Shown in pieces: positions 11,060 through 55,023 of a stretch of DNA of 64,000 nt; within the stretch, counting starts at the first letter, position 1, and the number at the start of each line of letters is the position of its first letter. The notes beneath the pieces are model-generated. The model did not search any database. It was given only the letters and a program-made list of their open reading frames with translations, and was not told where the DNA came from. The stretch is from positions 512,001 through 576,000 of IMG/VR virus record IMGVR_UViG_3300020045_008999. One strand, given 5' to 3'. The translations under genes were made by a program, and so were the position numbers. The DNA comes from a virus (taxonomy: Duplodnaviria > Heunggongvirae > Uroviricota > Caudoviricetes).

Positions 11060-12256
11060 TTGAAATTATTTGAAAAACTTGGAATCCCTGAAAACATATA
11101 CGAGGTTACCGAACATTTATTTAAAGAAATACTTATTGGAATACCTAGCATAAAAAAAGTAAATTCAACCAACCAACTAGAAATAGTGATTGATGATAAA
11201 ATAGCAGATTTGCATTTGAAAAAATGTAATATTTCTATAAAAATTAAAGCAGTTGAACTTTCTGACATAAGTGATACTACCGAACAAAAATTCAAAAATG
11301 GTGATTTAGTGCTTTATGGAATGGCAGTTAGTCATCACGCAGAAAAGGAAATTAAAAGCAATAAATACATAGTAACACCTAGTGATGTATTAGAACTATT
11401 TATAAATATTATTTCAATTGGTGGATTACCATCTAATTTAGATTTAGAATTATTTTTTTTAAATAATTCCACGGATATAATTAAATCATTGGGACATGAA
11501 ATCAAACACAAGTTTGATAATCATAAAAATCGAACAACTAAAATCATCCCACATTTACAATATAATGCATACCAAAGCATTCATATACCCATCAAAGCAG
11601 TTAGCAACTTTTTACACAATTTATATTATACCACCACTATTGAAAATTTAGTACGCACTAGTGAAGTATATTCTAAAATGAGATCTGTGAATGTTAATAA
11701 GGATAATTTTAAAGAATTTTTGTCAGCAGAATCTACCTACCAACGACTCACCCAAATTAATAATTTCACAGTAGATAAATTAAAATCCGATATTAAATTA
11801 GAAATGCAGGTAGTTAATGAGATAATTAACGAAAATTGCCCAGATGATGTTTTTATTGATGATGATGCTAAAGTCGATCGCATATTAGAATTTATATACA
11901 TAGGGTTATGTAATACTCAAATACGAGAATATCGAGATTTCTTAACTTCCAGCTACTTAGAAACAATATTTGGAATTGTAGATGGTAAAAAGAAGCAAAT
12001 GTTTGATCAAATGTCTAAGGAAATTAATAAATATGAAAATAATATTAGTAAATTTTACACTGATATAGAAAAAATGTTTATCTTTGTATCCAATAAGTAT
12101 ATGAAGAAAATTTCTAAACTTTACGACATGATAAAAAGCGATCAAAAATCAATCAACAACTGGGAATTGCACCAACGCATAAATTTGGGAAAACCCACTC
12201 GTAAAATGGAATCCAAAATCATTGATTATGAAACTTTTTTACGAAAGAAAAAATAG
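11060..12256 (+). CDS. Hypothetical protein with HExxH (zincin-like) motif
   Basis: 398 aa; LGHEIKH; TTG start; late-type motif upstream. Confidence 0.6.
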   Translation: MKLFEKLGIPENIYEVTEHLFKEILIGIPSIKKVNSTNQLEIVIDDKIADLHLKKCNISIKIKAVELSDISDTTEQKFKNGDLVLYGMAVSHHAEKEIKSNKYIVTPSDVLELFINIISIGGLPSNLDLELFFLNNSTDIIKSLGHEIKHKFDNHKNRTTKIIPHLQYNAYQSIHIPIKAVSNFLHNLYYTTTIENLVRTSEVYSKMRSVNVNKDNFKEFLSAESTYQRLTQINNFTVDKLKSDIKLEMQVVNEIINENCPDDVFIDDDAKVDRILEFIYIGLCNTQIREYRDFLTSSYLETIFGIVDGKKKQMFDQMSKEINKYENNISKFYTDIEKMFIFVSNKYMKKISKLYDMIKSDQKSINNWELHQRINLGKPTRKMESKIIDYETFLRKKK

Positions 12257-12318
12257 TACAATAAACATAAATTAGAAAGGTAAGAATTTGAATTCTTACC
12301 TTTTCGCAATATAATTAA

Positions 12319-12561
12319 TTGATGAAAACTAACATACTCTATTTAATATTGGGAATATTTATTACTACTTCCCTTGCCTTCACTGCTAATTCAACCGGTC
12401 TTATTACCTTAAAACCAGCGATGCCTATTCAAACCATTTCACATTTTTCACATGATGGTGAGAACATCAATCGGTTCATTAAGACTAATAGTAAAAAATA
12501 CACTGTACATAAAATGGAATCCTCCGAAAATGGTTATATTGTAGTCATGGTTAGATATTAA
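12319..12561 (+). CDS. Small secreted/membrane hypothetical protein
   Basis: Signal-peptide-like N-terminus. Confidence 0.55.
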   Translation: MMKTNILYLILGIFITTSLAFTANSTGLITLKPAMPIQTISHFSHDGENINRFIKTNSKKYTVHKMESSENGYIVVMVRY

Positions 12562-12569
12562 TATTTTAC

Positions 12570-12596
12570 AAACTATTTAATAAATTTTCCATATAA
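12570..12596 (+). promoter_or_regulatory. Bipartite phage promoter-like motif (A/C)AACTTT-N15-TATAA (variant)
   Basis: AAACTAT-N15-TATAA directly before thyA; same spacing at 8 other sites. Confidence 0.6.
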
Positions 12597-12601
12597 GTAA
12601 T

Positions 12602-13450
12602 ATGGAAAATAAAAATATAAGCAAAGCAGATTTTTACGTAAAAGAAAATCTTAAAAAAATTTTGGAAAATGGTAATCATGATGAAAATCCACGACCAAAA
12701 TACAAAGATGGAACTCCAGCTCATAGTATATTCGTGAATCAAATATTCGAGGAATACGATATTATGAATGGTGAATTTCCAATACCAACCCTTCGTAATA
12801 CGGCAATCAAGACCGGAATTAAAGAAATATTATGGATATACCAAGATCAGACATCTTCTCTTATAGAAGCACGTAAGAGAGGCATAAAATGGTGGGATGA
12901 ATGGTGTATAGGAAGCGATAATATCGGGATGAGATATGGTGCCACTGTTAACAAATGGGACTTGGTCAATAAATTATTGAAAGGTTTAGAAGAAAACCCG
13001 TTTGGTAGACGTCATATCATGAATTTATATCAAGAATCGGATTTACAAGAAACCGATGGATTATACCCATGTGCATATGAAACATTATGGAGTGTCTATA
13101 AAAAAAATGGGGAAACTATTTTAGATATGACATTAATTCAACGCTCAAACGATATGATCATGGCTGGTGCCATAAATAAAATACAATATGTCGCGTTAAT
13201 GATGATGATTGCATCACATTTGGGATATAAAGTTGGTAAATTTTGTCACCTTGTTCAAAACTTACACATCTATGATAGGCATGTAGCAGCAGCTCATGAA
13301 ATATTGGCAAAGGAGCCAATCTTAGACATAAACCCTAGAATTGAATTGAATGTAAAAAAGAATTTTTATGACATTCGTATCGAGGACTTCGAAATTTTTG
13401 ATATAAATGAAATCACTAAAATAACCAGCGAATTAGAAATTGCAATTTAA
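12602..13450 (+). CDS. thyA: Thymidylate synthase
   Basis: EILW, GRRHI, LYPCAY catalytic Cys, QRSND, NLHIYDRH. Confidence 0.95.
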   Translation: MENKNISKADFYVKENLKKILENGNHDENPRPKYKDGTPAHSIFVNQIFEEYDIMNGEFPIPTLRNTAIKTGIKEILWIYQDQTSSLIEARKRGIKWWDEWCIGSDNIGMRYGATVNKWDLVNKLLKGLEENPFGRRHIMNLYQESDLQETDGLYPCAYETLWSVYKKNGETILDMTLIQRSNDMIMAGAINKIQYVALMMMIASHLGYKVGKFCHLVQNLHIYDRHVAAAHEILAKEPILDINPRIELNVKKNFYDIRIEDFEIFDINEITKITSELEIAI

Positions 13451-13458
13451 ATTTTAAA

Positions 13459-13965
13459 ATGGACTTATCCAACATAAAACAACCATTCACTATTACATTA
13501 GTGGGCCCGCCTCTTGTTGGTAAGACAACATTTATAAAAACATTACATGGTGCCGAATTTGAAGTCATTTCATCAGATAGTATATTAATCGAGCTACATG
13601 GAAGTGATGATTATGGGATGGCTTTTACATCAGTGGATAAAACAACGCATGATTTAGAACTAAGTCGGAGAATTATTGAGAGTATAAAACTCAAAAAAAA
13701 CATAATTTTCGACTTAACTAATCTAAGAATTATACGACGACGAAGAAATTTAGGCCAATGTAGTAGAAAAATATATACCAATATTGCAATTATTTTTCCT
13801 AATATATCAGAAGAAACTTGCATTAAGCGTAATGAGAGTCGACGATTGACAGAATCAAAATATATAAATCCAAATTTGATTAGCCAAATGATCGCAGAAT
13901 ATCAACCAGTTGACTACTCTGAGGGCTTTTCCGAAATAATTTATTTAAAAAACACTACTAAATAG
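13459..13965 (+). CDS. P-loop kinase (polynucleotide kinase/AAA_33-like)
   Basis: LVGPPLVGKTT, ISSD, IFDLTNL, CIKRNESR. Confidence 0.8.
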   Translation: MDLSNIKQPFTITLVGPPLVGKTTFIKTLHGAEFEVISSDSILIELHGSDDYGMAFTSVDKTTHDLELSRRIIESIKLKKNIIFDLTNLRIIRRRRNLGQCSRKIYTNIAIIFPNISEETCIKRNESRRLTESKYINPNLISQMIAEYQPVDYSEGFSEIIYLKNTTK

Positions 13966-13978
13966 TAGTGTTTTTTTT
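13947..13978 (+). terminator. Intrinsic terminator
   Basis: AAAAACACTACTA-AA-TAGTAGTGTTTTTTTT; near-identical stem at 17315-17342. Confidence 0.7.
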
Positions 13979-14007
13979 GTATATTTGGGTTTTTATCGAT
14001 ATATTTG
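13977..14007 (+). promoter_or_regulatory. Bacteroidota-type promoter TTG-N20-TAnnTTTG
   Basis: TTG 13977-79 and TATATTTG 14000-07 upstream of the HD gene. Confidence 0.6.
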
Positions 14008-14028
14008 TAATACTAAAAAAATGAAATC

Positions 14029-14649
14029 ATGGGGAAGTTTGAAAAAATGAAAATATCGCTTAAATATTGGCTACTTGGGATGAGTAATTTTGATAAAAAT
14101 TATTTAAAATGTGTTGATGCTCTCGAATTTGCAGCATTACACCATACTGGTCTTCGCAAAGATGGCAAAACTCATGAATTTGAGCATCAAATTACCATAG
14201 CAATGTACATTAGATCAATTTCTCAAAATTTGATCAATCCATGGGTTGCAATTTGTGTTGCATTATTACATGATACTGCAGAAGATTATGATGTTACATA
14301 CGAAGAAATTGAATTTAAATTTGGTAGGGAAGTACGCGTATCAGTGGAAGCAATGACTAAAGAATACCGAGGGATTAAAAAAACGAACGATGTGTATTTC
14401 ACTGATATTTCACAAGACCCACATGCATCTGTAAATAAAGGGGCCGATAGAATTCATAATTTACAATCAATGGCCGGGGCTTTTACGAAAGACAAACAAA
14501 GAGAATACATCAAAGAAGCGGAAGATCATATTTTACCGGCAATTAAAAAAGCAAAACGATTATTCCCGGCTCAGGAAATGGCATATGAAAATATTAAATT
14601 GGTAATGGAATCTCAGATTCAACTAATTAAATTATCTCTAAATGAGTAA
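14029..14649 (+). CDS. HD-domain protein, RelA/SpoT hydrolase (Mesh1/small alarmone hydrolase)-like
   Basis: H-x-G-x-RKDG, H...LLHDTAED, KGADRIHNL. Confidence 0.85.
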   Translation: MGKFEKMKISLKYWLLGMSNFDKNYLKCVDALEFAALHHTGLRKDGKTHEFEHQITIAMYIRSISQNLINPWVAICVALLHDTAEDYDVTYEEIEFKFGREVRVSVEAMTKEYRGIKKTNDVYFTDISQDPHASVNKGADRIHNLQSMAGAFTKDKQREYIKEAEDHILPAIKKAKRLFPAQEMAYENIKLVMESQIQLIKLSLNE

Positions 14650-15352
14650 GACAATCATAACTAATATAACATTCGAGAGCCGAACTAAAAAAACGGTTCT
14701 CGAAATATTAAAGAAAACTAAATCCACAAATCAAGTAATTGACCTAAATAATATAATTCCAATGCCATCGGCACTAAAGGGATTTCCAATTGATACTATT
14801 TCTTATTTTCAATTAGCGTTACACAAATATGAATTGGGTGATACCAAAGATTTAATAGACTTACATTCCGAAAAAAACGACAAAATTTCAATCGATCAGT
14901 ATATTAACTACTATAATAATAAAGTAGTCGATAAATCCATTGGAAAAAGAATGTATGAAAATATATTAAATCATGGTGTGGCATCCTGGAGAGAATTTAA
15001 TAAAAAAGAGTGGGGACTTGGGAATAACTGTGTATATGGTAGTACCATGTTTAATAATACCACTGTGTCTATAAACACACTAGACCAATACCCAAAACCA
15101 ATCGTCGTGAAATTGTCTAAAATGTTCCCAGAGGACATATTATTCGTAAAATACGCAAGCGATTGTCCAGGTAAATATTCAAAATGCTTTCGAATTAAAA
15201 ATGGTATAATATTTGAAATGGTTCGTGTTAGTGATAAACGTATCACTTATTGTGAACTGTTTAAAAAAAACCCACATATTTTTAAAGATATACACCGCAA
15301 AGACACTATTAATTCTATTTTAGTATCTGCTGATATTATATCAATTCAGTAA
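14642..15352 (+). CDS. DUF1281/YubB ferredoxin-like family protein
   Basis: IDLNNIIPMP, HGVASWREF...WG, LSKMFP. Confidence 0.6.
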   Translation: MSKTIITNITFESRTKKTVLEILKKTKSTNQVIDLNNIIPMPSALKGFPIDTISYFQLALHKYELGDTKDLIDLHSEKNDKISIDQYINYYNNKVVDKSIGKRMYENILNHGVASWREFNKKEWGLGNNCVYGSTMFNNTTVSINTLDQYPKPIVVKLSKMFPEDILFVKYASDCPGKYSKCFRIKNGIIFEMVRVSDKRITYCELFKKNPHIFKDIHRKDTINSILVSADIISIQ

Positions 15353-46579: not shown

Positions 46580-47074
46580 TTGTATATGACAGTAAGTGTG
46601 AAACCAAGTGACTTGGTAAAAAGATGTTTATGGGACATGTATGTATATTATGTTGTTGGATCAGAAAAAATAGCGGAAGAAATTCTCAAAGAAGATATCG
46701 AGTTCGAAATATCCGAAACGGATGCTATAGTTATTGGGTTATTGAAATGTATTGAAACTAATAATCTTATACATAAATTCAATGAACATATGATACACAT
46801 GTTGAGTGTTAAATCATCTAAAAATGAAAATAGTTTGTTCATTAGAAAGAAAACCGTAGAAACCACTATCGAAAAATTTATTGGAAAGTTTCCAGACTAT
46901 TGGAATATGCCATTGGATTATAAAGTAGGCTTTTCAGATCTTCTAGTATATGTTACCGACTTACAGGCGAGTATAGAAAATTTAGAAGTTCATAAAATGA
47001 CTTTCCAGAATTGTGTATATGAGTCCTATTCGAGTGCAGCTGTTAAGAAAATATTAAACTTTATACATTATTAA
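46580..47074 (+). CDS. Hypothetical protein
   Basis: 164 aa, coupled to grpE. Confidence 0.6.
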   Translation: MYMTVSVKPSDLVKRCLWDMYVYYVVGSEKIAEEILKEDIEFEISETDAIVIGLLKCIETNNLIHKFNEHMIHMLSVKSSKNENSLFIRKKTVETTIEKFIGKFPDYWNMPLDYKVGFSDLLVYVTDLQASIENLEVHKMTFQNCVYESYSSAAVKKILNFIHY

Positions 47075-47076
47075 CT

Positions 47077-47547
47077 ATGGAAGAAATCATTAATATCATA
47101 TTAAATACCCCAAATGATACTGAGTTAGGTACCGCTATTCGAAATTTATATTACGAATCACCGGAACTTTTTGATCAAAATGATAAATATCTAAGATTGT
47201 TTGCAGAGTTTGACAACTTCAAAAAACGTTCCTATAAAGAGCGTGGGGATATTGAGAACCGGGCTAAGATGGATGCAATTGATCCGTTGCTGGAATTATA
47301 TGATGATTTATATTATTCGCTTAAAAACAGCCCAGTGGACAATGACGGCATACAAATAGTGTATGATAAATTGGGGAGAAAATTATTGACGATCGGTATT
47401 GTTGAAGTGTCCACTGAAATTTATGATTCCGAAGTACATGAAGTGATTAGTGTAATTGGAACCGGGAAAGAAATTATTGATGTTGTATCAAAGGGATATA
47501 GCATTAATGGGGTTATATATCGCTATCCGAAAGTAGTTCTAGGGTAA
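47077..47547 (+). CDS. grpE: GrpE nucleotide exchange factor
   Basis: DKYLRLFAEFDNFKKR, HEVI, VVSKGY...RYPKVV. Confidence 0.9.
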   Translation: MEEIINIILNTPNDTELGTAIRNLYYESPELFDQNDKYLRLFAEFDNFKKRSYKERGDIENRAKMDAIDPLLELYDDLYYSLKNSPVDNDGIQIVYDKLGRKLLTIGIVEVSTEIYDSEVHEVISVIGTGKEIIDVVSKGYSINGVIYRYPKVVLG

Positions 47548-47650: not shown

Positions 47651-50026
47651 ATGAACGAACAAATAATAGATTTAAAGGAAAATAATAAAAAAATATTAGG
47701 CAAAAGAACAAACAACACGGAAGTTCCATTAATAGACCACATGAACCAGGTAAAGGATAAGGCAGAAATGATAAAGGGTAAATTTTACTATGATAGATAC
47801 AACGGGCCCAAACGTCATTATAGTGATGCTCTGTTAACCGCTGCACAATTTCATGATATAGGCAAAGCTAATCCGGTATTCCAACTAAAAGTAATGATGA
47901 CCAAACAAGACTTTGAAGATACCGAACTCATGACAGATGTAAAATATAAAAATGGTATTATACTAACTAATAAATTCAGACATAATGAGATCGGTGCGGC
48001 ATTTATGTATATTTGGACCAACGTAGAATATGAAGTAGTTAAATTGATATATTGGCACCATGGGATTTCGAAAAATAACCAGATCAATAAGACTGGGTTT
48101 AGTGAGATATTGAAAGGGGTTGATGTTGAACAAATGAAGAATATTGTCCGTGAATTAAACCCTGATATATTACTAACGGAACCCAAAGACAGTATTAACT
48201 GCCCTACCTTTTACACTACTAACATGAACATAGCTAATATCGCACTACATGAAGATGATAGTGATTTCATGACTACATTAAGTTACTTAATAAGTGCGGA
48301 CAGAATGGTATCTGGTTCATCGATTAACATTTCGAATGTAATTAATAAACAACCAGTGACTACATATACTAATCCATACAACAATGACCGATTTGCTGAT
48401 CAAGAAAGAATTGCAATGGATGCTACTCATGTAGAAGGCGGCGAAGATAAGCGAGTTACACAAATCAATGCGCCTGGTGGATTTGGCAAAACCATGGTTG
48501 GGTTATTGTGGAGTTTGAAGTCTGATAAAAGGCTAATTTGGGTTTGTCCAAGAAATTTTATTACTGAAAATATTTACGAATCGATAAAAAAAGAACTCAA
48601 GCTTCTTAATGTCAAATACAAGGTATCGTGTATTATTGCCGGTGAAGTCACTCGATCTAATTATGAAGAACTTGGTATTGTCAACGAACCAAACATCTAT
48701 GAATCGGATATAGTTGTAACTAATATAGATTCATATTTACGCCCAAATTACGAACTAAACAATGTACATGCTTCATTGAATATTCTAAATGCTGATGTGA
48801 TTTTTGACGAGTATCACGAATTGATATCTAAGAGTGGTGGAATATTTGCACTATTTTCTAAAATACTGAAAGCTAGAAATTCCTATTCTAAACATGGCAA
48901 AACTCTTTTATTGTCCGCAACACCCATCGATTTTTCAAGTCGTTGGCATGTAAAATATGGTGGTGGTTCCTATATATTACCCTCAAACGACGGACATTAT
49001 CCACCAATACATGATAAGAAATACAAAGTAACGGTGACCATTGATCAGAAGATTGTCAAAATTAATGACTTGACACTATATGTAAAAAATACAATAAAGA
49101 GTGCTCAAGAATTGGCCATTTACTATAAACATTCTAATTTATTACATCACAAGTTCCAAGAAGTCGACAAAGAAAGAATATTTGGTGAAATGATACGTTC
49201 GTATGGTGCCGGCGGCAAATATAAGAAACAACATAATTTACCTGGGTTTATAGGAACCCATGTAATACAATCATCATTAGATATATCGTTCAAACATATG
49301 GTTGAAGACGTTATATCACCATCAGCCAGTATGCAACGTTTTTCTAGATGTGATCGAGCAGGGGATTACGATAGTGTTCAATTCGGACAATCTGAGGTGA
49401 CATTCAATTTAAACACGGATAAAAGTAGTGAGACAATTTCTGAAATATTATATGAATCAGATTTAACAATTCTTTGGCACGGATATTTACGAATACATCA
49501 TCAGCCTCAAATGACAATTGCCGAACTTTATACGCTATACCGTGATTTTAATAGAGTTTATAGTTCTTCAATTACTAATTGGGTAAGTGACTGCTATAAT
49601 GATTCTAATAATAATCTATTAGCGATATACCCAATAAAGTATTTCAAGCAGAAAGCCAACAAAAATAAAAATAGCGTTCCAAATAATATAATGCGGTCAG
49701 ATAGTAACCATGTAGCATACACATGTCTTCTAGATGATGGATCTGGAAATTATATGCTCCCATTATCACAAGGTTTGTATAAAAATAGTTACCCACAAAC
49801 TTTTAAAGAGCCAGGTGATTGGAGGGAATGTATGGTTAATTTTATAGAAGAACAAAATAAATTACCAAACTCAATATTTGATTTTAGTAAATATAAAAAT
49901 AAAGGAAATAAGGTTCTAGTATGGACTGATGATAATATGCGAAAAAGCTTTAGAAATTACGACACACCATATTTATCGGTAAATGATGTATATTCGCCAA
50001 TATATGGTGTAATACGTAATAAATAA
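47651..50026 (+). CDS. cas3: CRISPR-associated HD nuclease-helicase Cas3
   Basis: LIDH, FHDIGKANPVFQ, RHNEIG, WHHG, ADRMVS; APGGFGKT, IFDEYH, LSATP, LHHKF, THVIQSSLDI, QRFSRCDR. Confidence 0.95.
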   Translation: MNEQIIDLKENNKKILGKRTNNTEVPLIDHMNQVKDKAEMIKGKFYYDRYNGPKRHYSDALLTAAQFHDIGKANPVFQLKVMMTKQDFEDTELMTDVKYKNGIILTNKFRHNEIGAAFMYIWTNVEYEVVKLIYWHHGISKNNQINKTGFSEILKGVDVEQMKNIVRELNPDILLTEPKDSINCPTFYTTNMNIANIALHEDDSDFMTTLSYLISADRMVSGSSINISNVINKQPVTTYTNPYNNDRFADQERIAMDATHVEGGEDKRVTQINAPGGFGKTMVGLLWSLKSDKRLIWVCPRNFITENIYESIKKELKLLNVKYKVSCIIAGEVTRSNYEELGIVNEPNIYESDIVVTNIDSYLRPNYELNNVHASLNILNADVIFDEYHELISKSGGIFALFSKILKARNSYSKHGKTLLLSATPIDFSSRWHVKYGGGSYILPSNDGHYPPIHDKKYKVTVTIDQKIVKINDLTLYVKNTIKSAQELAIYYKHSNLLHHKFQEVDKERIFGEMIRSYGAGGKYKKQHNLPGFIGTHVIQSSLDISFKHMVEDVISPSASMQRFSRCDRAGDYDSVQFGQSEVTFNLNTDKSSETISEILYESDLTILWHGYLRIHHQPQMTIAELYTLYRDFNRVYSSSITNWVSDCYNDSNNNLLAIYPIKYFKQKANKNKNSVPNNIMRSDSNHVAYTCLLDDGSGNYMLPLSQGLYKNSYPQTFKEPGDWRECMVNFIEEQNKLPNSIFDFSKYKNKGNKVLVWTDDNMRKSFRNYDTPYLSVNDVYSPIYGVIRNK

Positions 50027-50098: not shown

Positions 50099-51190
50099 AT
50101 GAAAAACAACGTACAGAACATTCTTTTTAGAGTGAAATTGAAGGGAAATGGTATTGTGAATTTTGATTCGGATAATCAAAAATGGGATTTAGTTAAACAT
50201 GGTATAAAACATTTGGTTCCCACCGATGATAATAATCAAATGGTGAGTAATACGAAATATGCCAAGAAACGTTTTTTCAAAGATGCTGATGGCAATCCAT
50301 CTTACAAAATCGCGATATCGTCAACGTGTTTAGGTAAGGCTATATATGCAGACCACCTTGAAATTACTACGCCGATGATCGGAGTGAATGACATTTTATT
50401 TATGGGATGTGTGGCTAGTCCCGCGTCATTATTGCGTGGCTATGTACAAACTCGTGGTAAGAATTCTGTATCATATAATCGAAAGGGCACAGTGACACTA
50501 AGTGATGCAGTCCAGTCAAACGGTGCTATATCTTCAGTAGAAACTATGACCAAAGCCGGATCCAGAAGTGCAACTTCATTATATAACCAAGAAAATGTAA
50601 GTGATATAGAGTATGAAGCAACTGGTATAATGAATTTACAAGAAATGCAATTCTATTCGGTGGATACATTACATTCCCGAGCTATGTTTTCTGATGATTT
50701 ATTTCCAATGTTTTCCAAATTAATTAAGTCGCGTATGCCGGAATTTGATTCAGAAATAGGGTATTATACTTTGAAGACTTGCGAAGCTAAGATACCAGAA
50801 AAGGGATTTGTCATTAACGATGAATGTATGTTACATTTGGTTAAGTTTTATTTCTCTAATTTGATCAGAGCTAAAATAACAAGAGCTCATGGACATGCTG
50901 CTGTACACGAAGTTGAATATAAACTGGTAACTGATACGGTTTATGGTGGCATGAATGATACAAGTGATTGGATAAAAATCAAATCACAATCATGCATTGA
51001 TTCAATGTCTTTTGGTACAAAAGAATGGTACCAAGAATATAGTGATTCTGAAAGTGATTCAATTAGAAGTCTAATTGATGTAGTTGAAGTAACTACTAAA
51101 GAAAATAAAAAGAAAAAAAACGAAGAAGCATCTGCTAGAAAGGCAGCGGCCGCTGAGACACGTCTTAAAAATAAAGATGATGGGAAATAA
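50099..51190 (+). CDS. cas7fv: Cas7fv-like backbone subunit (type I-F2/I-Fv)
   Basis: FRVKLKGNGIVNFD, ISSTC, ASPASLLRGYV, GSRSATSLY...EY...QEMQFYSVD...RAM, EKGFVIND, ITRAHGHAAV align colinearly with Shewanella Cas7fv as recalled. Confidence 0.85.
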   Translation: MKNNVQNILFRVKLKGNGIVNFDSDNQKWDLVKHGIKHLVPTDDNNQMVSNTKYAKKRFFKDADGNPSYKIAISSTCLGKAIYADHLEITTPMIGVNDILFMGCVASPASLLRGYVQTRGKNSVSYNRKGTVTLSDAVQSNGAISSVETMTKAGSRSATSLYNQENVSDIEYEATGIMNLQEMQFYSVDTLHSRAMFSDDLFPMFSKLIKSRMPEFDSEIGYYTLKTCEAKIPEKGFVINDECMLHLVKFYFSNLIRAKITRAHGHAAVHEVEYKLVTDTVYGGMNDTSDWIKIKSQSCIDSMSFGTKEWYQEYSDSESDSIRSLIDVVEVTTKENKKKKNEEASARKAAAAETRLKNKDDGK

Positions 51191-52190
51191 TTTAGGATAC
51201 ATAAAATTAGTCTTTGATTCTGCAAAATTATTTAGGGTTGCAAAAGACGAGAAAATTGGATCACTTTCACCCAAAGCTGGTTTATTAAAATCACAAGAAT
51301 CAATTGATGGAAAATCTCTTACCAAGCGTAAGAGATTTGGCTTTGTGAATCCAATTACTTATTATCAAATCAGTAATGTATTATGTGCACTTACTGGTAA
51401 TCGTCCAGTTAATTCAGTCAGGTTTACTAGATTCGAGCACAATAACGACTATATCGATTGGGCAAAACAGTGTTACTTAAAGTACACAAATTTACTCACA
51501 TATGATGAAGATGGGCTTATTTTGCCAACTCGAAGTGTTGTCACAACTTCTAAGGCTATGGATAATTCTAATGTAACCCAAGTGTTATTAACCTGGAGTG
51601 ATATTAAATATTTCGTAGGCGAATATATCAAAGATGCATTAAGCATGTCCGCTTTCGACCAGTTGCTATCCCACTATAATGTAAACATGTGCGATGCCAC
51701 TTTTGAAGATTTTTTAGAAGTGGTAGCTAAAAGTGGTGATACTAAAACATTATATACTTGGCTGTATGGTTTGAATAAAAATGGAACCCCTTCAAAAACA
51801 CTGCTGAATGATATTACTTATTATTACATTTCTAAGGGACATATTGATAAGTCGCTTCCGGGATTTAATATAAAAGGACATGTATTTGGTAATTACACAA
51901 TTCCTATGACTCAGAATATGCCTAGTTCTGGGAATATGCGAGCTACCGATGATTGGCGAATTGGTGCCAGAATAAAAAGTGGCATCAATCACCATGAATT
52001 ATTTTGTGGTGAAATTTTGGTACCAATTAGAAAAGTGGGGGATCTTCAAAAATTTCTAGTCGGGTCCGGAGTTTGTACTATATTGGATGGGGGTGTAGTG
52101 ACCATACATGGCGAGGCTAATCCGGAAATTGACCACCTATCAGAATTTGAATTAGTAGGAAATATATCAGACGAACGTCTAATCAATTAA
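51177..52190 (+). CDS. cas5fv: Cas5fv-like subunit
   Basis: 337 aa, large for a Cas5 and like Cas5fv; ITYYQISNVLCALTG helix; CGEILVP and GSGVCTILDGG Gly-loop; lies between cas7 and cas6. Confidence 0.7.
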   Translation: MMGNNLGYIKLVFDSAKLFRVAKDEKIGSLSPKAGLLKSQESIDGKSLTKRKRFGFVNPITYYQISNVLCALTGNRPVNSVRFTRFEHNNDYIDWAKQCYLKYTNLLTYDEDGLILPTRSVVTTSKAMDNSNVTQVLLTWSDIKYFVGEYIKDALSMSAFDQLLSHYNVNMCDATFEDFLEVVAKSGDTKTLYTWLYGLNKNGTPSKTLLNDITYYYISKGHIDKSLPGFNIKGHVFGNYTIPMTQNMPSSGNMRATDDWRIGARIKSGINHHELFCGEILVPIRKVGDLQKFLVGSGVCTILDGGVVTIHGEANPEIDHLSEFELVGNISDERLIN

Positions 52191-52202
52191 AAAATATCAT
52201 AT

Positions 52203-52967
52203 ATGCGTATTAAAATATCATTTACTGAAAACAATAAACCAGTCCCAGTAGACAATCAGTATCATTTAAATTCCTATATACATAAATGTTTAGGAAATAA
52301 CAATAAATACCACAATGCCAAAAGTGATTACTCAATTTCACATCTATACGGTGGTACTCTAAATAAGTCCAATAACACATTAAATTTTGAAAAGGGTGGC
52401 TATATTATAATATCATCGATGGATAAAGAGTTTATGGGTGCTTTATTTGCGGGAATATATGCTAATCAACTATTTGGATTTGGCATGCAGTTCAAATCAG
52501 TTGATAATGTAGCCGCTGAATATTTCTATGCCGGATGGAATCACTTTGCAACACTATCACCATTTATTATTAAAGAATATCAGGATAAAAAAAACTATAC
52601 ATTCTTAACGCTAGATGATCCTAATTTTGAATACAAAGTGAAGCAATATTTAATTCGCAAAATTCGCAAAATCAATCCTAGATTGGATTTGTCTGATTTT
52701 GATATAAATATCAAAACTCACGAAAAGCACAAAATTAAAAAAATATTGATAAAGAATGTTATCAATCATGCGAATCAATGTCAGATTTCAATTTATACAA
52801 ATCCTAAAGTTGCTAAACTATTGTACCACATAGGAATAGGACAATCAACCGGTTCTGGTCTTGGTACAATATATCCTACATCTAAACATAGCTTTTATCG
52901 TGAGGTGAAAATACATTCAGGTAATGTTACTAAAGTAGATAGGATCGAAAAAATGCAAATGTATTAA
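52203..52967 (+). CDS. cas6: CRISPR endoribonuclease Cas6 (I-A/I-B/III style)
   Basis: MRIKISF...PVDNQY-x-L-x-SYI, YSISHL, TLSPFII, GIGQSTGSGLG loop. Confidence 0.92.
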   Translation: MRIKISFTENNKPVPVDNQYHLNSYIHKCLGNNNKYHNAKSDYSISHLYGGTLNKSNNTLNFEKGGYIIISSMDKEFMGALFAGIYANQLFGFGMQFKSVDNVAAEYFYAGWNHFATLSPFIIKEYQDKKNYTFLTLDDPNFEYKVKQYLIRKIRKINPRLDLSDFDINIKTHEKHKIKKILIKNVINHANQCQISIYTNPKVAKLLYHIGIGQSTGSGLGTIYPTSKHSFYREVKIHSGNVTKVDRIEKMQMY

Positions 52968-53059
52968 TAATAGTGTGTATAAAATGTGTCGAAATCAGAA
53001 TATTAACACCCAAAAATCCAGTACAAACTACTACACTTCAATAAGTTATACTGTGGTAT
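52968..53059 (+). promoter_or_regulatory. Putative CRISPR leader
   Basis: Short AT-rich non-coding gap adjoining the eight identical repeats. Confidence 0.55.
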
Positions 53060-53649
53060 AGTAGTACTTATAGTAATCCGTAAGGGAATCACAACCATTC
53101 AGAAGGAGCAAATCCTAAATTATTAAGTAGTACTTATAGTAATCCGTAAGGGAATCACAACAACGGTATAACTCTTATAATCACCGCGGTCAGTAGTACT
53201 TATAGTAATCCGTAAGGGAATCACAACACGGAAAAGACGAAAGTTTAATATATAGGAGTAGTACTTATAGTAATCCGTAAGGGAATCACAACCGGATCTA
53301 GGTTTATTAAAATTTTAGTTAAGTAGTACTTATAGTAATCCGTAAGGGAATCACAACACTTATTAATTCCTGCGACTGGCGAGTAACAGTAGTACTTATA
53401 GTAATCCGTAAGGGAATCACAACTAGTAATCGAAAAAACGGTTAGTGATTACAGTAGTACTTATAGTAATCCGTAAGGGAATCACAACATGATGAGAAGA
53501 AATAAAAATGTGGATCAAAGTAGTACTTATAGTAATCCGTAAGGGAATCACAACACTCTATAGATTATTTAATAACTCTAAGAAAGTAGTACTTATAGTA
53601 ATCCGTAAGGGAAATATAATAGAATTAATTGGGATCTAATTTTATGAAT

Positions 53650-53744
53650 GGGAATTATATCGGTCCGTGTGGAAAACACATCATAATATGTTTAAGTTCT
53701 TTGAAATCTTTGGTAGTTATAGTGATCTGAAAGGGAATCACAAC
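53650..53744 (+). repeat. 95-nt block inside the array, copy 1
   Basis: 93/95 identical to 54500-54594. Confidence 0.95.
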
Positions 53745-54499
53745 AAAGTGTAAAAATTGGTTTCCATATACTATGGTAGTACTTATAGCAATCCGTAAGG
53801 GAATCACGACCACGCTATAGATTATGCTGGTAGAAATACAGTTAATAATTATATCAATCCGTAAGGGAATCACAACAGGCGTTCTCATGGAGGCGGCTTT
53901 GAATAAAGTAGTACTTATGACAATCCGTAAGGGAATCACAACAAGTGACACTTCAATGCCAAAAAAAGTAATAGTAGTACTTATGACAATCCGAAAGGGA
54001 ATCACAACATAAACGGATTACACACCACACGGCTAGAAAGTAGTACTTATGACAATCCGAAAGGGAATCACAACTAGTTATGGACGTAGAGAGAGATCCC
54101 TTTAAGTAGTACTTATGACAATCTGAGAGGGAATCACAACACATAAATAATTTTACCACAATCCGAAAGGGAATCACAACGTGATAAACGCAATTTGGTC
54201 GTTTGGGTCCAGTAGTACTTATGACAATCCGAAAGGGAATCACAATGTCGGATGTCATGTTAATACATCTCAGATGAGTAGTACTTATGACAACCCGAAA
54301 GGGAATCACAACTATAGTGGCCTCTAGCTCCACTTTTGTTACAGTAGTACTTATAGCAATCCGTAAGGGAATCACAACGGAAATCTTCTTGAGGCACAAC
54401 AGGAAAATAGTAGTACTTATAGCAATCCGTAAGGGAATCACAACAGGACCGATAGCGTGGTGTATAATAGATTTGAGTAGTACTTATGTTAATCCATAA

Positions 54500-54594
54500 G
54501 GGAATTATATCGGTCCGTGTGAAAAACACATCATAATATGTTTAAGTTCTTTGAAATCTTTGGTAGTTAAAGTGATCTGAAAGGGAATCACAAC
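54500..54594 (+). repeat. 95-nt block inside the array, copy 2
   Basis: 93/95 identical to 53650-53744. Confidence 0.95.
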
Positions 54595-55023
54595 AAGCGT
54601 AAGCAACACCAATATTTTAAAGAGTTGCCACTTATAGCAATCCGTAAGGGAATCACAACAGTGCTGCGGGTAATTATCCAAATAAAATTAGTAGTACTTA
54701 TAGTAATCCGAAAGGGAATCAGAACAAACTGTATTGGGGTAGTCATTTTATTTTTGGTAGTACTTATAGCATTCCGTAAGGGAATCACAACATCATTGAA
54801 TTTGAGCTAGGTGTTCAAGCAGTTGGTACTTATAGCAATCCGAAAGGGAATCACAACAATCAGTGCATCAAAAATTGAATAATCATTAGTAGTACTTATA
54901 GCAATCCGAAAAGGAATCACAACAAATGAACAGAATTAAATTAGAATTAGAAAAGTAGTATTTATAGTAATCCGTAAGGGAATCATCGCAAATAACCTGG
55001 TGAAAATTTAAAGAAAAATAATT

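Follow-up and report, generated by a model that had tools for sequence, protein, structure and literature searches.

A 64,000-nucleotide (nt) stretch of a viral genome (the window), taken from the IMG/VR record IMGVR_UViG_3300020045_008999 (G000; 596,785 bp, CheckV completeness 98%), was found to hold a minimal type I CRISPR-Cas system that belongs to this 597-kb phage, and the repeats at positions 53060-54989 of the window are its main CRISPR RNA (crRNA) array. The explanation that we favor is that the type I phage array is extended in trans by the Cas1-Cas2 of the host, whichever host module this may be, and we consider its chances to be evenly balanced. An earlier note on this DNA, which proposed that a class 1 effector had been paired with class 2-like repeats so that host Cas1-Cas2 could extend the array, was partly supported by the results described below.

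Four genes preceded the array on the same strand, in the order cas3, Cas7fv-like gene, 337-amino-acid (aa) gene and cas6. The cas3 product (47651-50026, + strand; 791 aa) was a stand-alone protein with an HD nuclease and a DEAD-box helicase and without a Cas2 fusion, and Pfam Cas3_HD, DEAD and Cas3-like_C_2 as well as NCBIfam cas3_HD (TIGR01596) were all matched above their cut-offs. The combination of an HD nuclease with a superfamily 2 helicase in Cas3 placed the system in type I. The phage Cas3 shared 30% identity with the Cas3 of L014, a Bacteroidetes metagenome-assembled genome. The backbone subunit (50099-51190, +; 363 aa) was Cas7fv-like. It matched NCBIfam Cas7fv with E 2e-14, below the cut-off, its homologues carried the precomputed family PF28157 (Cas7fv-like), and the profile of the Cas7 family matched chain C of PDB 5O6U, the Cas7fv of the Shewanella I-Fv complex, with E 1.3e-27. 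The score against the Cas7fv equivalog NF040577 was 53.5 bits with a cut-off of 200, and the protein was therefore homologous to Cas7fv but did not reach the equivalog level of I-F2 (I-Fv). The next gene (51177-52190, +; 337 aa) was conserved and always lay between cas7 and cas6 in the relatives. Pfam, NCBIfam and PDB sequence searches with its product gave no match, and its AlphaFold model was poor (predicted local distance difference test, pLDDT, 53); by gene position alone it is an unproven candidate for Cas5. The last gene (52203-52967, +) encoded a Cas6 endoribonuclease of the generic type (TIGR01877, 81.8 bits with a cut-off of 58.65; Pfam Cas_Cas6_C), not a Cas6f. More than 200 homologues of this Cas6 were found, and the best of those listed showed 50-64% identity. 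Of the hallmarks of I-F2 (I-Fv), neither Cas6f nor a fusion of Cas2 with Cas3 was present, and the locus had no cas1. The class 1 effector claimed in the earlier note was confirmed by Cas3 (HD and helicase), the Cas7fv-like protein and Cas6.

The main array comprised 28 repeats of 36 nt on the + strand, which recurred every 65-66 nt and were separated by spacers of about 30 nt; their consensus was AGTAGTACTTATAGTAATCCGTAAGGGAATCACAAC. The 36-nt repeat with 30-nt spacers of the earlier note was confirmed. The repeats were near-identical, direct and regularly spaced, and the spacers were unique and of constant length, as expected of a CRISPR array; no spacer of this phage had a second copy in its genome. 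Across the family, the spacer length was 30 nt in 143 of 184 cases and 29 nt in 29 of 184. This phage had 38-41 spacers in its arrays, and some 160 came from relatives. The array was composed of three stacked sub-arrays, which were set apart by two remnants of an older leader. The leader of the youngest sub-array (52968-53059, +), containing ACAAACTACTACA at 53023, was followed by sub-array 1 (53060-53620, +), with eight identical AGTAG...CACAAC repeats and a degenerate ninth (53585-53620). Copy A of the older-leader remnant (53650-53708, +) carried GTTCTTTGAAAT at 53696, was 98% identical to the copy at 54500 and preceded sub-array 2 (53709-54511, +), which contained 12 variant repeats and a truncated unit at 54153-54180. 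Copy B (54500-54558, +), with GTTCTTTGAAAT at 54546, preceded sub-array 3 (54559-54989, +), with seven variant repeats including GTTGC (54624) and GTTGG (54822) and a degenerate terminal repeat (54954-54989). The GTTCTTTGAAAT motif of the leader remnants was also present in relatives and in two bacterial arrays, in each case in the CRISPR leader. The GTT-starting repeats were located where they had been claimed, GTTAA at 53841, GTTGC at 54624 and GTTGG at 54822, and two of the three had GTTG...CAAC ends. Such a start was found in just 3 of the 19 leader-distal repeats, and most of these began with AGTAG, GGTAG or TTTGG.

A second array of 15 repeats (locus L061) was located outside the window, 29 kb downstream at G000 595592-596549 and 240 bp from the record end. 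Its consensus, GTTGGTACTTATAGTAATCCGTAAGGGAATCACAAC, had the GTTG...CAAC form, and the array had its own leader and no cas genes nearby. The 13-mer ACAAACTACTACA occurred exactly twice in the 597-kb genome (window 53023-53035 and G000 595533-595545), and both copies were in array leaders, 37 and 59 nt ahead of the first repeat. A 12-mer that contains TTGACA, GTTCTTTGAMAT, was observed at window 53696-53707 and 54546-54557, with three copies in the 597-kb phage against 0.6 expected. It was also seen in L054 (9189), L058 (10727), L071 (12612), L073 (10925), L021 (4609-4620, - strand), L089 (2264) and L091 (2847), and was common to leaders of three kinds: those of the phage type I arrays, of a Sphingobacterium Cas13b array and of a Bergeyella array with its own cas1. 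In Bacteroidota, this 12-mer may serve as a promoter within the leader or as a site to which a factor binds. Scanning of the array for sigma-70 promoters and terminators showed that such sites were no more frequent than in shuffled sequences. Three minus-strand open frames of 89-162 aa (window 53655-54529) were rejected as genes, being products of the repeat periodicity. At the spacer ends, A was only mildly enriched at position 1 (48%, compared with 35% overall).

Comparison of the repeats of 13 lineages revealed that the 8-nt tail ATCACAAC was invariant, that the preceding 11 nt (TCC-GTAAG-GGA) carried 0-4 changes and that the first 15 nt were variable, with GTTGG, GTTGT, GTTAG, ATTGT, ACTGT and AGTAG among the starts. 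The pairs 18-28, 19-27 and 20-26 of a mini-stem were present in 39 of 39 cells across these lineages, and the 19-27 pair showed a double change from C-G to U-A in two of them. A register slid by one position gave 38 of 39 pairs, almost equal to that of the mini-stem. The calculated fold of the phage repeat was -2.7 kcal/mol (z = 0.19), no more stable than that of shuffled sequence, and the repeat lacked the stable central stem closed by the repeat ends that marks type VI-B, for which the Bergeyella repeat gave -11.2 kcal/mol (z = -3.4). Class 1 repeats processed by Cas6 follow an 8-nt tag rule. The 3-bp stem left precisely AUCACAAC as the 3' tail, and a cut at the 3' base of the mini-stem, giving AUCACAAC, would fit this rule. 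In the earlier proposal of a small Cas6 hairpin with an 8-nt handle, a short stem and an 8-nt tail were supported, whereas the stability of the hairpin was only that of shuffled sequence. None of the Rfam CRISPR-DR families matched the phage repeats or the VI-B repeats. In the distant relative L086, the last 15 nt of the repeats (12114-12882) were tandemly duplicated, with TAAGGTAATCACAAC occurring twice.

The 3' end of the phage repeat was searched for in 185,579 species genomes as two consecutive ...GG(G/T)AATCACAAC ends 60-74 nt apart. True arrays with this end were found in Bacteroidota only, and five of them (L017, L018, L021, L036 and L040, including Bergeyella zoohelcum) were adjoined by Cas13b. 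The Bergeyella Cas13b repeat cited in the earlier note was real: it was GTTGGAACTGCTCTCATTTTGGAGGGTAATCACAAC and adjoined Cas13b in L017. Apart from L014, no cas1-bearing type I or type III locus was found beside the checked arrays with this end, a check in which the neighbors of L025 and L032-L034 were not profiled and the L004 and L023 arrays lay at contig ends. At positions 1-24, which were outside the search pattern, the phage and VI-B repeats agreed at a mean of 12.0 of 24 positions and at up to 17 of 24, compared with 6.7 +/- 2.2 in shuffles; the repeat pairs are not independent, and this excess is to be read as support, not as a probability. By reading, the repeat of L083 matched the VI-B repeat of L025 at 22 of the last 23 positions, and L021 had one more difference. 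The II-C repeats of Bergeyella zoohelcum and Capnocytophaga cynodegmi were 47 nt long, started with GTTGT, ended with GTTACAAC and were separated by 30-nt spacers. The phage arrays had the VI-B geometry of 36-nt repeats and 30-nt spacers, and two repeats of the window as well as the second array had the GTTG...CAAC ends, which the youngest sub-array (AGTAG) did not have. The earlier statement that this geometry with such ends is a VI-B and II-C trait was therefore consistent with the data, as the end was restricted to Bacteroidota arrays, five of them beside Cas13b, and the II-C repeats shared GTTG...ACAAC ends and 30-nt spacers. In Flavobacterium columnare, the VI-B array gains spacers via the II-C Cas1, and the motif common to II-C and VI-B repeats is the leader-distal one (Hoikkala et al., PMC8092290). 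This motif in crRNA orientation is the ...ACAAC end, which was kept by the phage repeats. Judged by sequence comparison, the likeness of the phage repeats to class 2 repeats is real. The earlier note had suggested descent from or mimicry of a class 2 repeat; mimicry by this phage itself was not supported, since the repeat was that of a whole huge-phage lineage.

Profiles of Cas1, Cas2 and Cas4, which were positive in reference genomes, found nothing in the whole 98%-complete record. The Cas13b profile NF038190, which detected Cas13b in all five of the loci named above, had no match in G000. The sole match of the Cas9 profile in the record was an 18.9-bit match of the HNH region in a 162-aa frame, so that the cas9 that defines II-C was not found, no search having been made for a tracrRNA. 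Cas1 was also absent from nine related IMG/VR records of huge phages, four of which were rated 100% complete. This phage therefore resembled the known carriers of arrays extended in trans in having no adaptation genes of its own. The circumstances that the earlier note had named as contrary to its idea (nearest repeats in type I or III loci with their own cas1, cas1-cas2 elsewhere in the phage, and crRNA made from the minus strand) were not encountered; for the crRNA strand, the judgment was only an indirect one, based on the order of the genes, on the degenerate repeat at the distal end and on where the leader lies.

The same cassette with a 36/30 array and without adaptation genes was present on many metagenomic contigs, of which the inspected ones were up to 389 kb; for the Cas6 cluster P0113, the longest listed contig was 711 kb, and the place actually inspected was of 326 kb. 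The cassette was surrounded by genes of huge phages, including those for SmpB, a sigma factor, IF3 and phosphoribosyl pyrophosphate (PRPP) synthetase and clusters of transfer RNA (tRNA) genes. On L083 (389 kb, labeled as a provirus in IMG/VR), at least 12 tRNA genes followed the array (11858-14977). Two genes just upstream of cas3 in the window, on the same strand (46580-47547), were HD-domain-like, by a weak HDOD match, and GrpE-like, respectively; at this position the relatives had other genes, such as those for a sigma factor, SmpB or PRPP synthetase. L014 was considered as a bacterial member of the family and was rejected, as 9 of 10 neighboring proteins matched phage families, and the Cas7 of the phage family was found in 0 of 400 other Bacteroidota genomes. 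Because of these two results, the family was treated as phage-borne. Shine-Dalgarno motifs preceded 1.0% of the phage genes, compared with 4.8% in a control window, and the upstream regions were A-rich and G-poor. Missing Shine-Dalgarno motifs and A-rich upstream regions are typical of Bacteroidota, and for this reason Bacteroidota is the likely host phylum. The stop codon was TAA in 470 of 605 long open reading frames of G000. The spacers of the fetched bacterial loci were compared with the phage, and no match was found.

The 36/30 repeat was not tied to the effector. In L087, the most distant member (a 149-kb phage contig; 7672-14151), the same chassis of Cas3, Cas7fv (NCBIfam E 8e-39) and a gene at the Cas5 position was combined with a Cas6e-like protein and an array of 22 stem-loop repeats of 32 nt, which ended with GTTGAAAG and were separated by spacers of about 34 nt. 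This comparison of loci indicates that Cas6 and the repeat have been exchanged together as a module. This exchange agrees with the view of the earlier note that the repeat was adopted, but it dates the adoption to the base of a lineage, not to this phage. The arrays also differed at the leader end between close strains of the relatives. L073-L079, one phage recovered from seven samples, had identical arrays except for L078, which differed in the leader-proximal spacer, and L054 had three extra leader-side spacers before the single spacer that it shared with L055 and L060. In L056, spacers 2 and 4 (12778-12807 and 12910-12939) overlapped by 15 nt on the same strand, which implied that both were derived from one 45-nt target stretch. 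The relatives together held about 200 distinct spacers, and little was shared between lineages. The leader-end differences, the overlap in L056 and the eight identical leader-proximal repeats in the present phage fit polarized integration.

In the mechanism that we propose, transcription of the array would run along the + strand, beginning at the leader that follows cas6, and Cas6 would cut each repeat after the mini-stem U18-A28, C19-G27 and C20-G26. Each crRNA would then carry the 8-nt 5' tag AUCACAAC followed by a 30-nt guide. The Cas7fv-type backbone would hold the crRNA and Cas3 would degrade the target DNA, most probably that of competing phages. New spacers would enter at the leader end via the Cas1-Cas2 of the infected cell. 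The most likely supplier would be the Bacteroidota module by which VI-B and II-C arrays are extended as well. With these arrays the phage repeat shares the 36-nt length, the 30-nt spacers and the leader-distal ...ACAAC end. In its full form, the proposal would be that a huge-phage lineage with a class 1 effector, which probably infects Bacteroidota, swapped in a Cas6-plus-repeat module fitting the host II-C Cas1-Cas2, which also feeds Cas13b arrays; this form is put forward tentatively, as a possibility about which doubt outweighs confidence.

Several results weigh against extension by host Cas1-Cas2. Protospacers were not found in GenBank phages, IMG/VR or JGI metagenomes, and consequently no protospacer-adjacent motif (PAM) could be derived. 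A BLAST search of the array against 50,697 GenBank phages gave a single chance-level match of 36 nt. Exact scans of IMG/VR gave no match for the target shared by two L056 spacers, two of the phage's own spacers merged into one query, the alternative newest spacers of L073 and L078 or the newest spacer of each of the phage's own arrays. Of two metagenome scans, one gave nothing and the other a chimeric AT-rich match at 24 of 29 positions, which was rejected. The comparison of about 200 distinct spacers of the family with the phage genome and the fetched loci yielded array-to-array matches and one self-match only. That self-match, a possible self-target, was of an L086 spacer with its own contig (5931-5958) at 27 of 30 positions. 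In F. columnare, the II-C-type motif TTTANNNNN lies on the leader-proximal side, several bases from the protospacer. A motif at that distance would not itself supply a type I PAM, which occupies positions -3 to -1. In addition, this phage was not seen together with a matching Cas1-Cas2 in any genome, and no host was found. The VI-B leaders that were read mostly ended TTGAG/G (leader/repeat junction), while the phage leaders ended variously, so that the junction was not shared. GTTG was the least conserved part of the repeat, and the youngest and most uniform sub-array began with AGTAG. Finally, the arrays were mosaics, as shown by the stacked leaders here and by blocks of repeat variants in L055 and L060, and recombination thus accounts for part of the variation.

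If recombination, duplication and the capture of blocks between co-infecting phages accounted for all of the variation, no integrase would act during infection, and the likeness to Cas13b repeats would reflect ancestry or convergence without a role in adaptation. Such an origin would explain the three stacked sub-arrays with their duplicated leader remnants, the switch of repeat variant inside the arrays of L055 and L060, which share one spacer only with L054 despite an identical Cas7 protein (P0009), and the internal two-spacer indel that separates L056 from L057. It seems unlikely, since the eight perfectly identical leader-proximal repeats fit copying at integration, L073 and L078 differ solely at the leader-proximal spacer, two spacers within the L056 array overlap on one target, and the many spacers of the relatives are little shared between lineages. 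Alternatively, a Cas1-Cas2-Cas4 of class 1 (I-B-like) could add the spacers in trans, coming either from the host or from some other mobile element, and the repeat would in essence be one for a class 1 Cas6 and no class 2 look-alike. In its 3' layout (CC, short loop, GG and 8-nt tag), the phage repeat is like the repeat of a Bergeyella array that has a cas1 of its own; this Bergeyella repeat ends ...CACCATAAGGAATTGAAAC and matched at 13 of 21 positions in a hand alignment. The ...ATTGAAAC end of that array resembles class 1 repeats, and its leader also contains GTTCTTTGAMAT. Moreover, 5 of the 8 positions of AUCACAAC were identical in AUUGAAAC, the common tag, and the phage Cas6 is of the generic class 1 kind. 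However, in the Bergeyella array the repeats measure about 30 nt and the spacers about 35 nt, in contrast to 36/30 here, and the VI-B repeats were closer, with 17 of 21 positions over the same stretch (hand count) and agreement in length and at the 5' end. Between the phage Cas6 and the one found in that Bergeyella genome (contig C2, with a duplicate Cas1 copy), the identity was only 24% (E 0.004), and the genome-wide scan showed no cas1-bearing type I or III locus beside the arrays with this end, the neighbors of L025 and L032-L034 not having been profiled. A class 1 lender is accordingly judged quite improbable. The likeness of the repeats might instead serve the sharing of guides, with the phage Cas6 and Cascade processing and loading transcripts of host Cas13b arrays, or with phage crRNAs feeding or jamming Cas13b. 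The match of the last 23 nt of L083 to the L025 VI-B repeats at 22 of 23 positions and the second phage array, which stands alone and has GTTG...CAAC ends, agree with this idea, but the phage repeat lacks the long stem of the Cas13b type (-2.7 compared with -11.2 kcal/mol), and host guides, once loaded, would risk self-targeting; we regard it as very improbable indeed.

Extension of the array by host Cas1-Cas2, the favored explanation, bears on how huge phages keep long and changing arrays, for which this phage and its relatives offer a concrete and testable case with a defined effector cassette, a repeat that agrees with class 2 arrays of the likely host phylum in length, spacer size and leader-distal end, a Cas6-plus-repeat module that a sister lineage shows to be exchangeable, and natural polymorphism at the leader end. 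If its full form, with the host II-C Cas1-Cas2, is true, the infected host writes the immune memory of the virus, and adaptation in trans operates across CRISPR classes and across the boundary between virus and host. If confirmed, compatibility with the integrase, and not the type of effector, would determine the choice of repeat in a mobile element. Researchers would also gain a compact Cas3-Cas7-Cas5-Cas6 system that uses 30-nt guides.

Reliance on the Cas proteins of another system, by phages or in trans, is already a general idea in the literature (PMC7162821, PMC8092290, PMC11656645). No description of this cassette, its repeat family or the cross-class fit was found in the literature searched. 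Al-Shayeb et al. 2020 (PMC7162821) described huge phages without Cas1, Cas2 and Cas4 and proposed that such phages depend on Cas proteins of the host where the two have similar repeats. Their type I variant lacks Cas6, has a Cas5d-like protein and a helicase replacing Cas3, whereas a Cas7fv-like protein, Cas6 and Cas3 are present here. The system is related to I-F2 (I-Fv) of Shewanella putrefaciens CN-32 (PDB 5O6U, 5O7H) by a homologous Cas7fv backbone, the lack of large (Cas8) and small (Cas11) subunits and the order of cas7, the gene at the Cas5 position and cas6. It differs in that the phage Cas3 has no Cas2 fusion, Cas6 is of the generic TIGR01877 kind instead of Cas6f, cas1 is missing, the carrier is a huge phage, and the repeats are 36 nt long, nearly unstructured and separated by 30-nt spacers. 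In I-Fv, the repeats are hairpins of 28 nt and the spacers are 32 nt long. The VI-B arrays of Bacteroidota, such as that of Bergeyella zoohelcum, are alike in their 36-nt repeats, 30-nt spacers, GTTG start in some copies, ...GG(G/T)AATCACAAC end and locus without cas1-cas2. Unlike these arrays, the phage has no Cas13b, its repeat has no long central stem, its effector degrades DNA, and its crRNA is presumably processed by Cas6 and carries a 5' tag, while Cas13b crRNAs retain the 3' repeat. Plasmid IV-A3 systems gain spacers in trans via the host I-E, according to work cited in PMC11656645. Both this case and that of VI-B via II-C (PMC8092290) are similar to the present one in having an array and effector without adaptation genes, repeats like those of a system with Cas1-Cas2, which is co-resident in the two known cases and would be so here, and leader-end spacers that vary between strains, here those of relatives. 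In the present case, known from sequence alone, a virus would borrow from its host, and the loan would cross two CRISPR classes.

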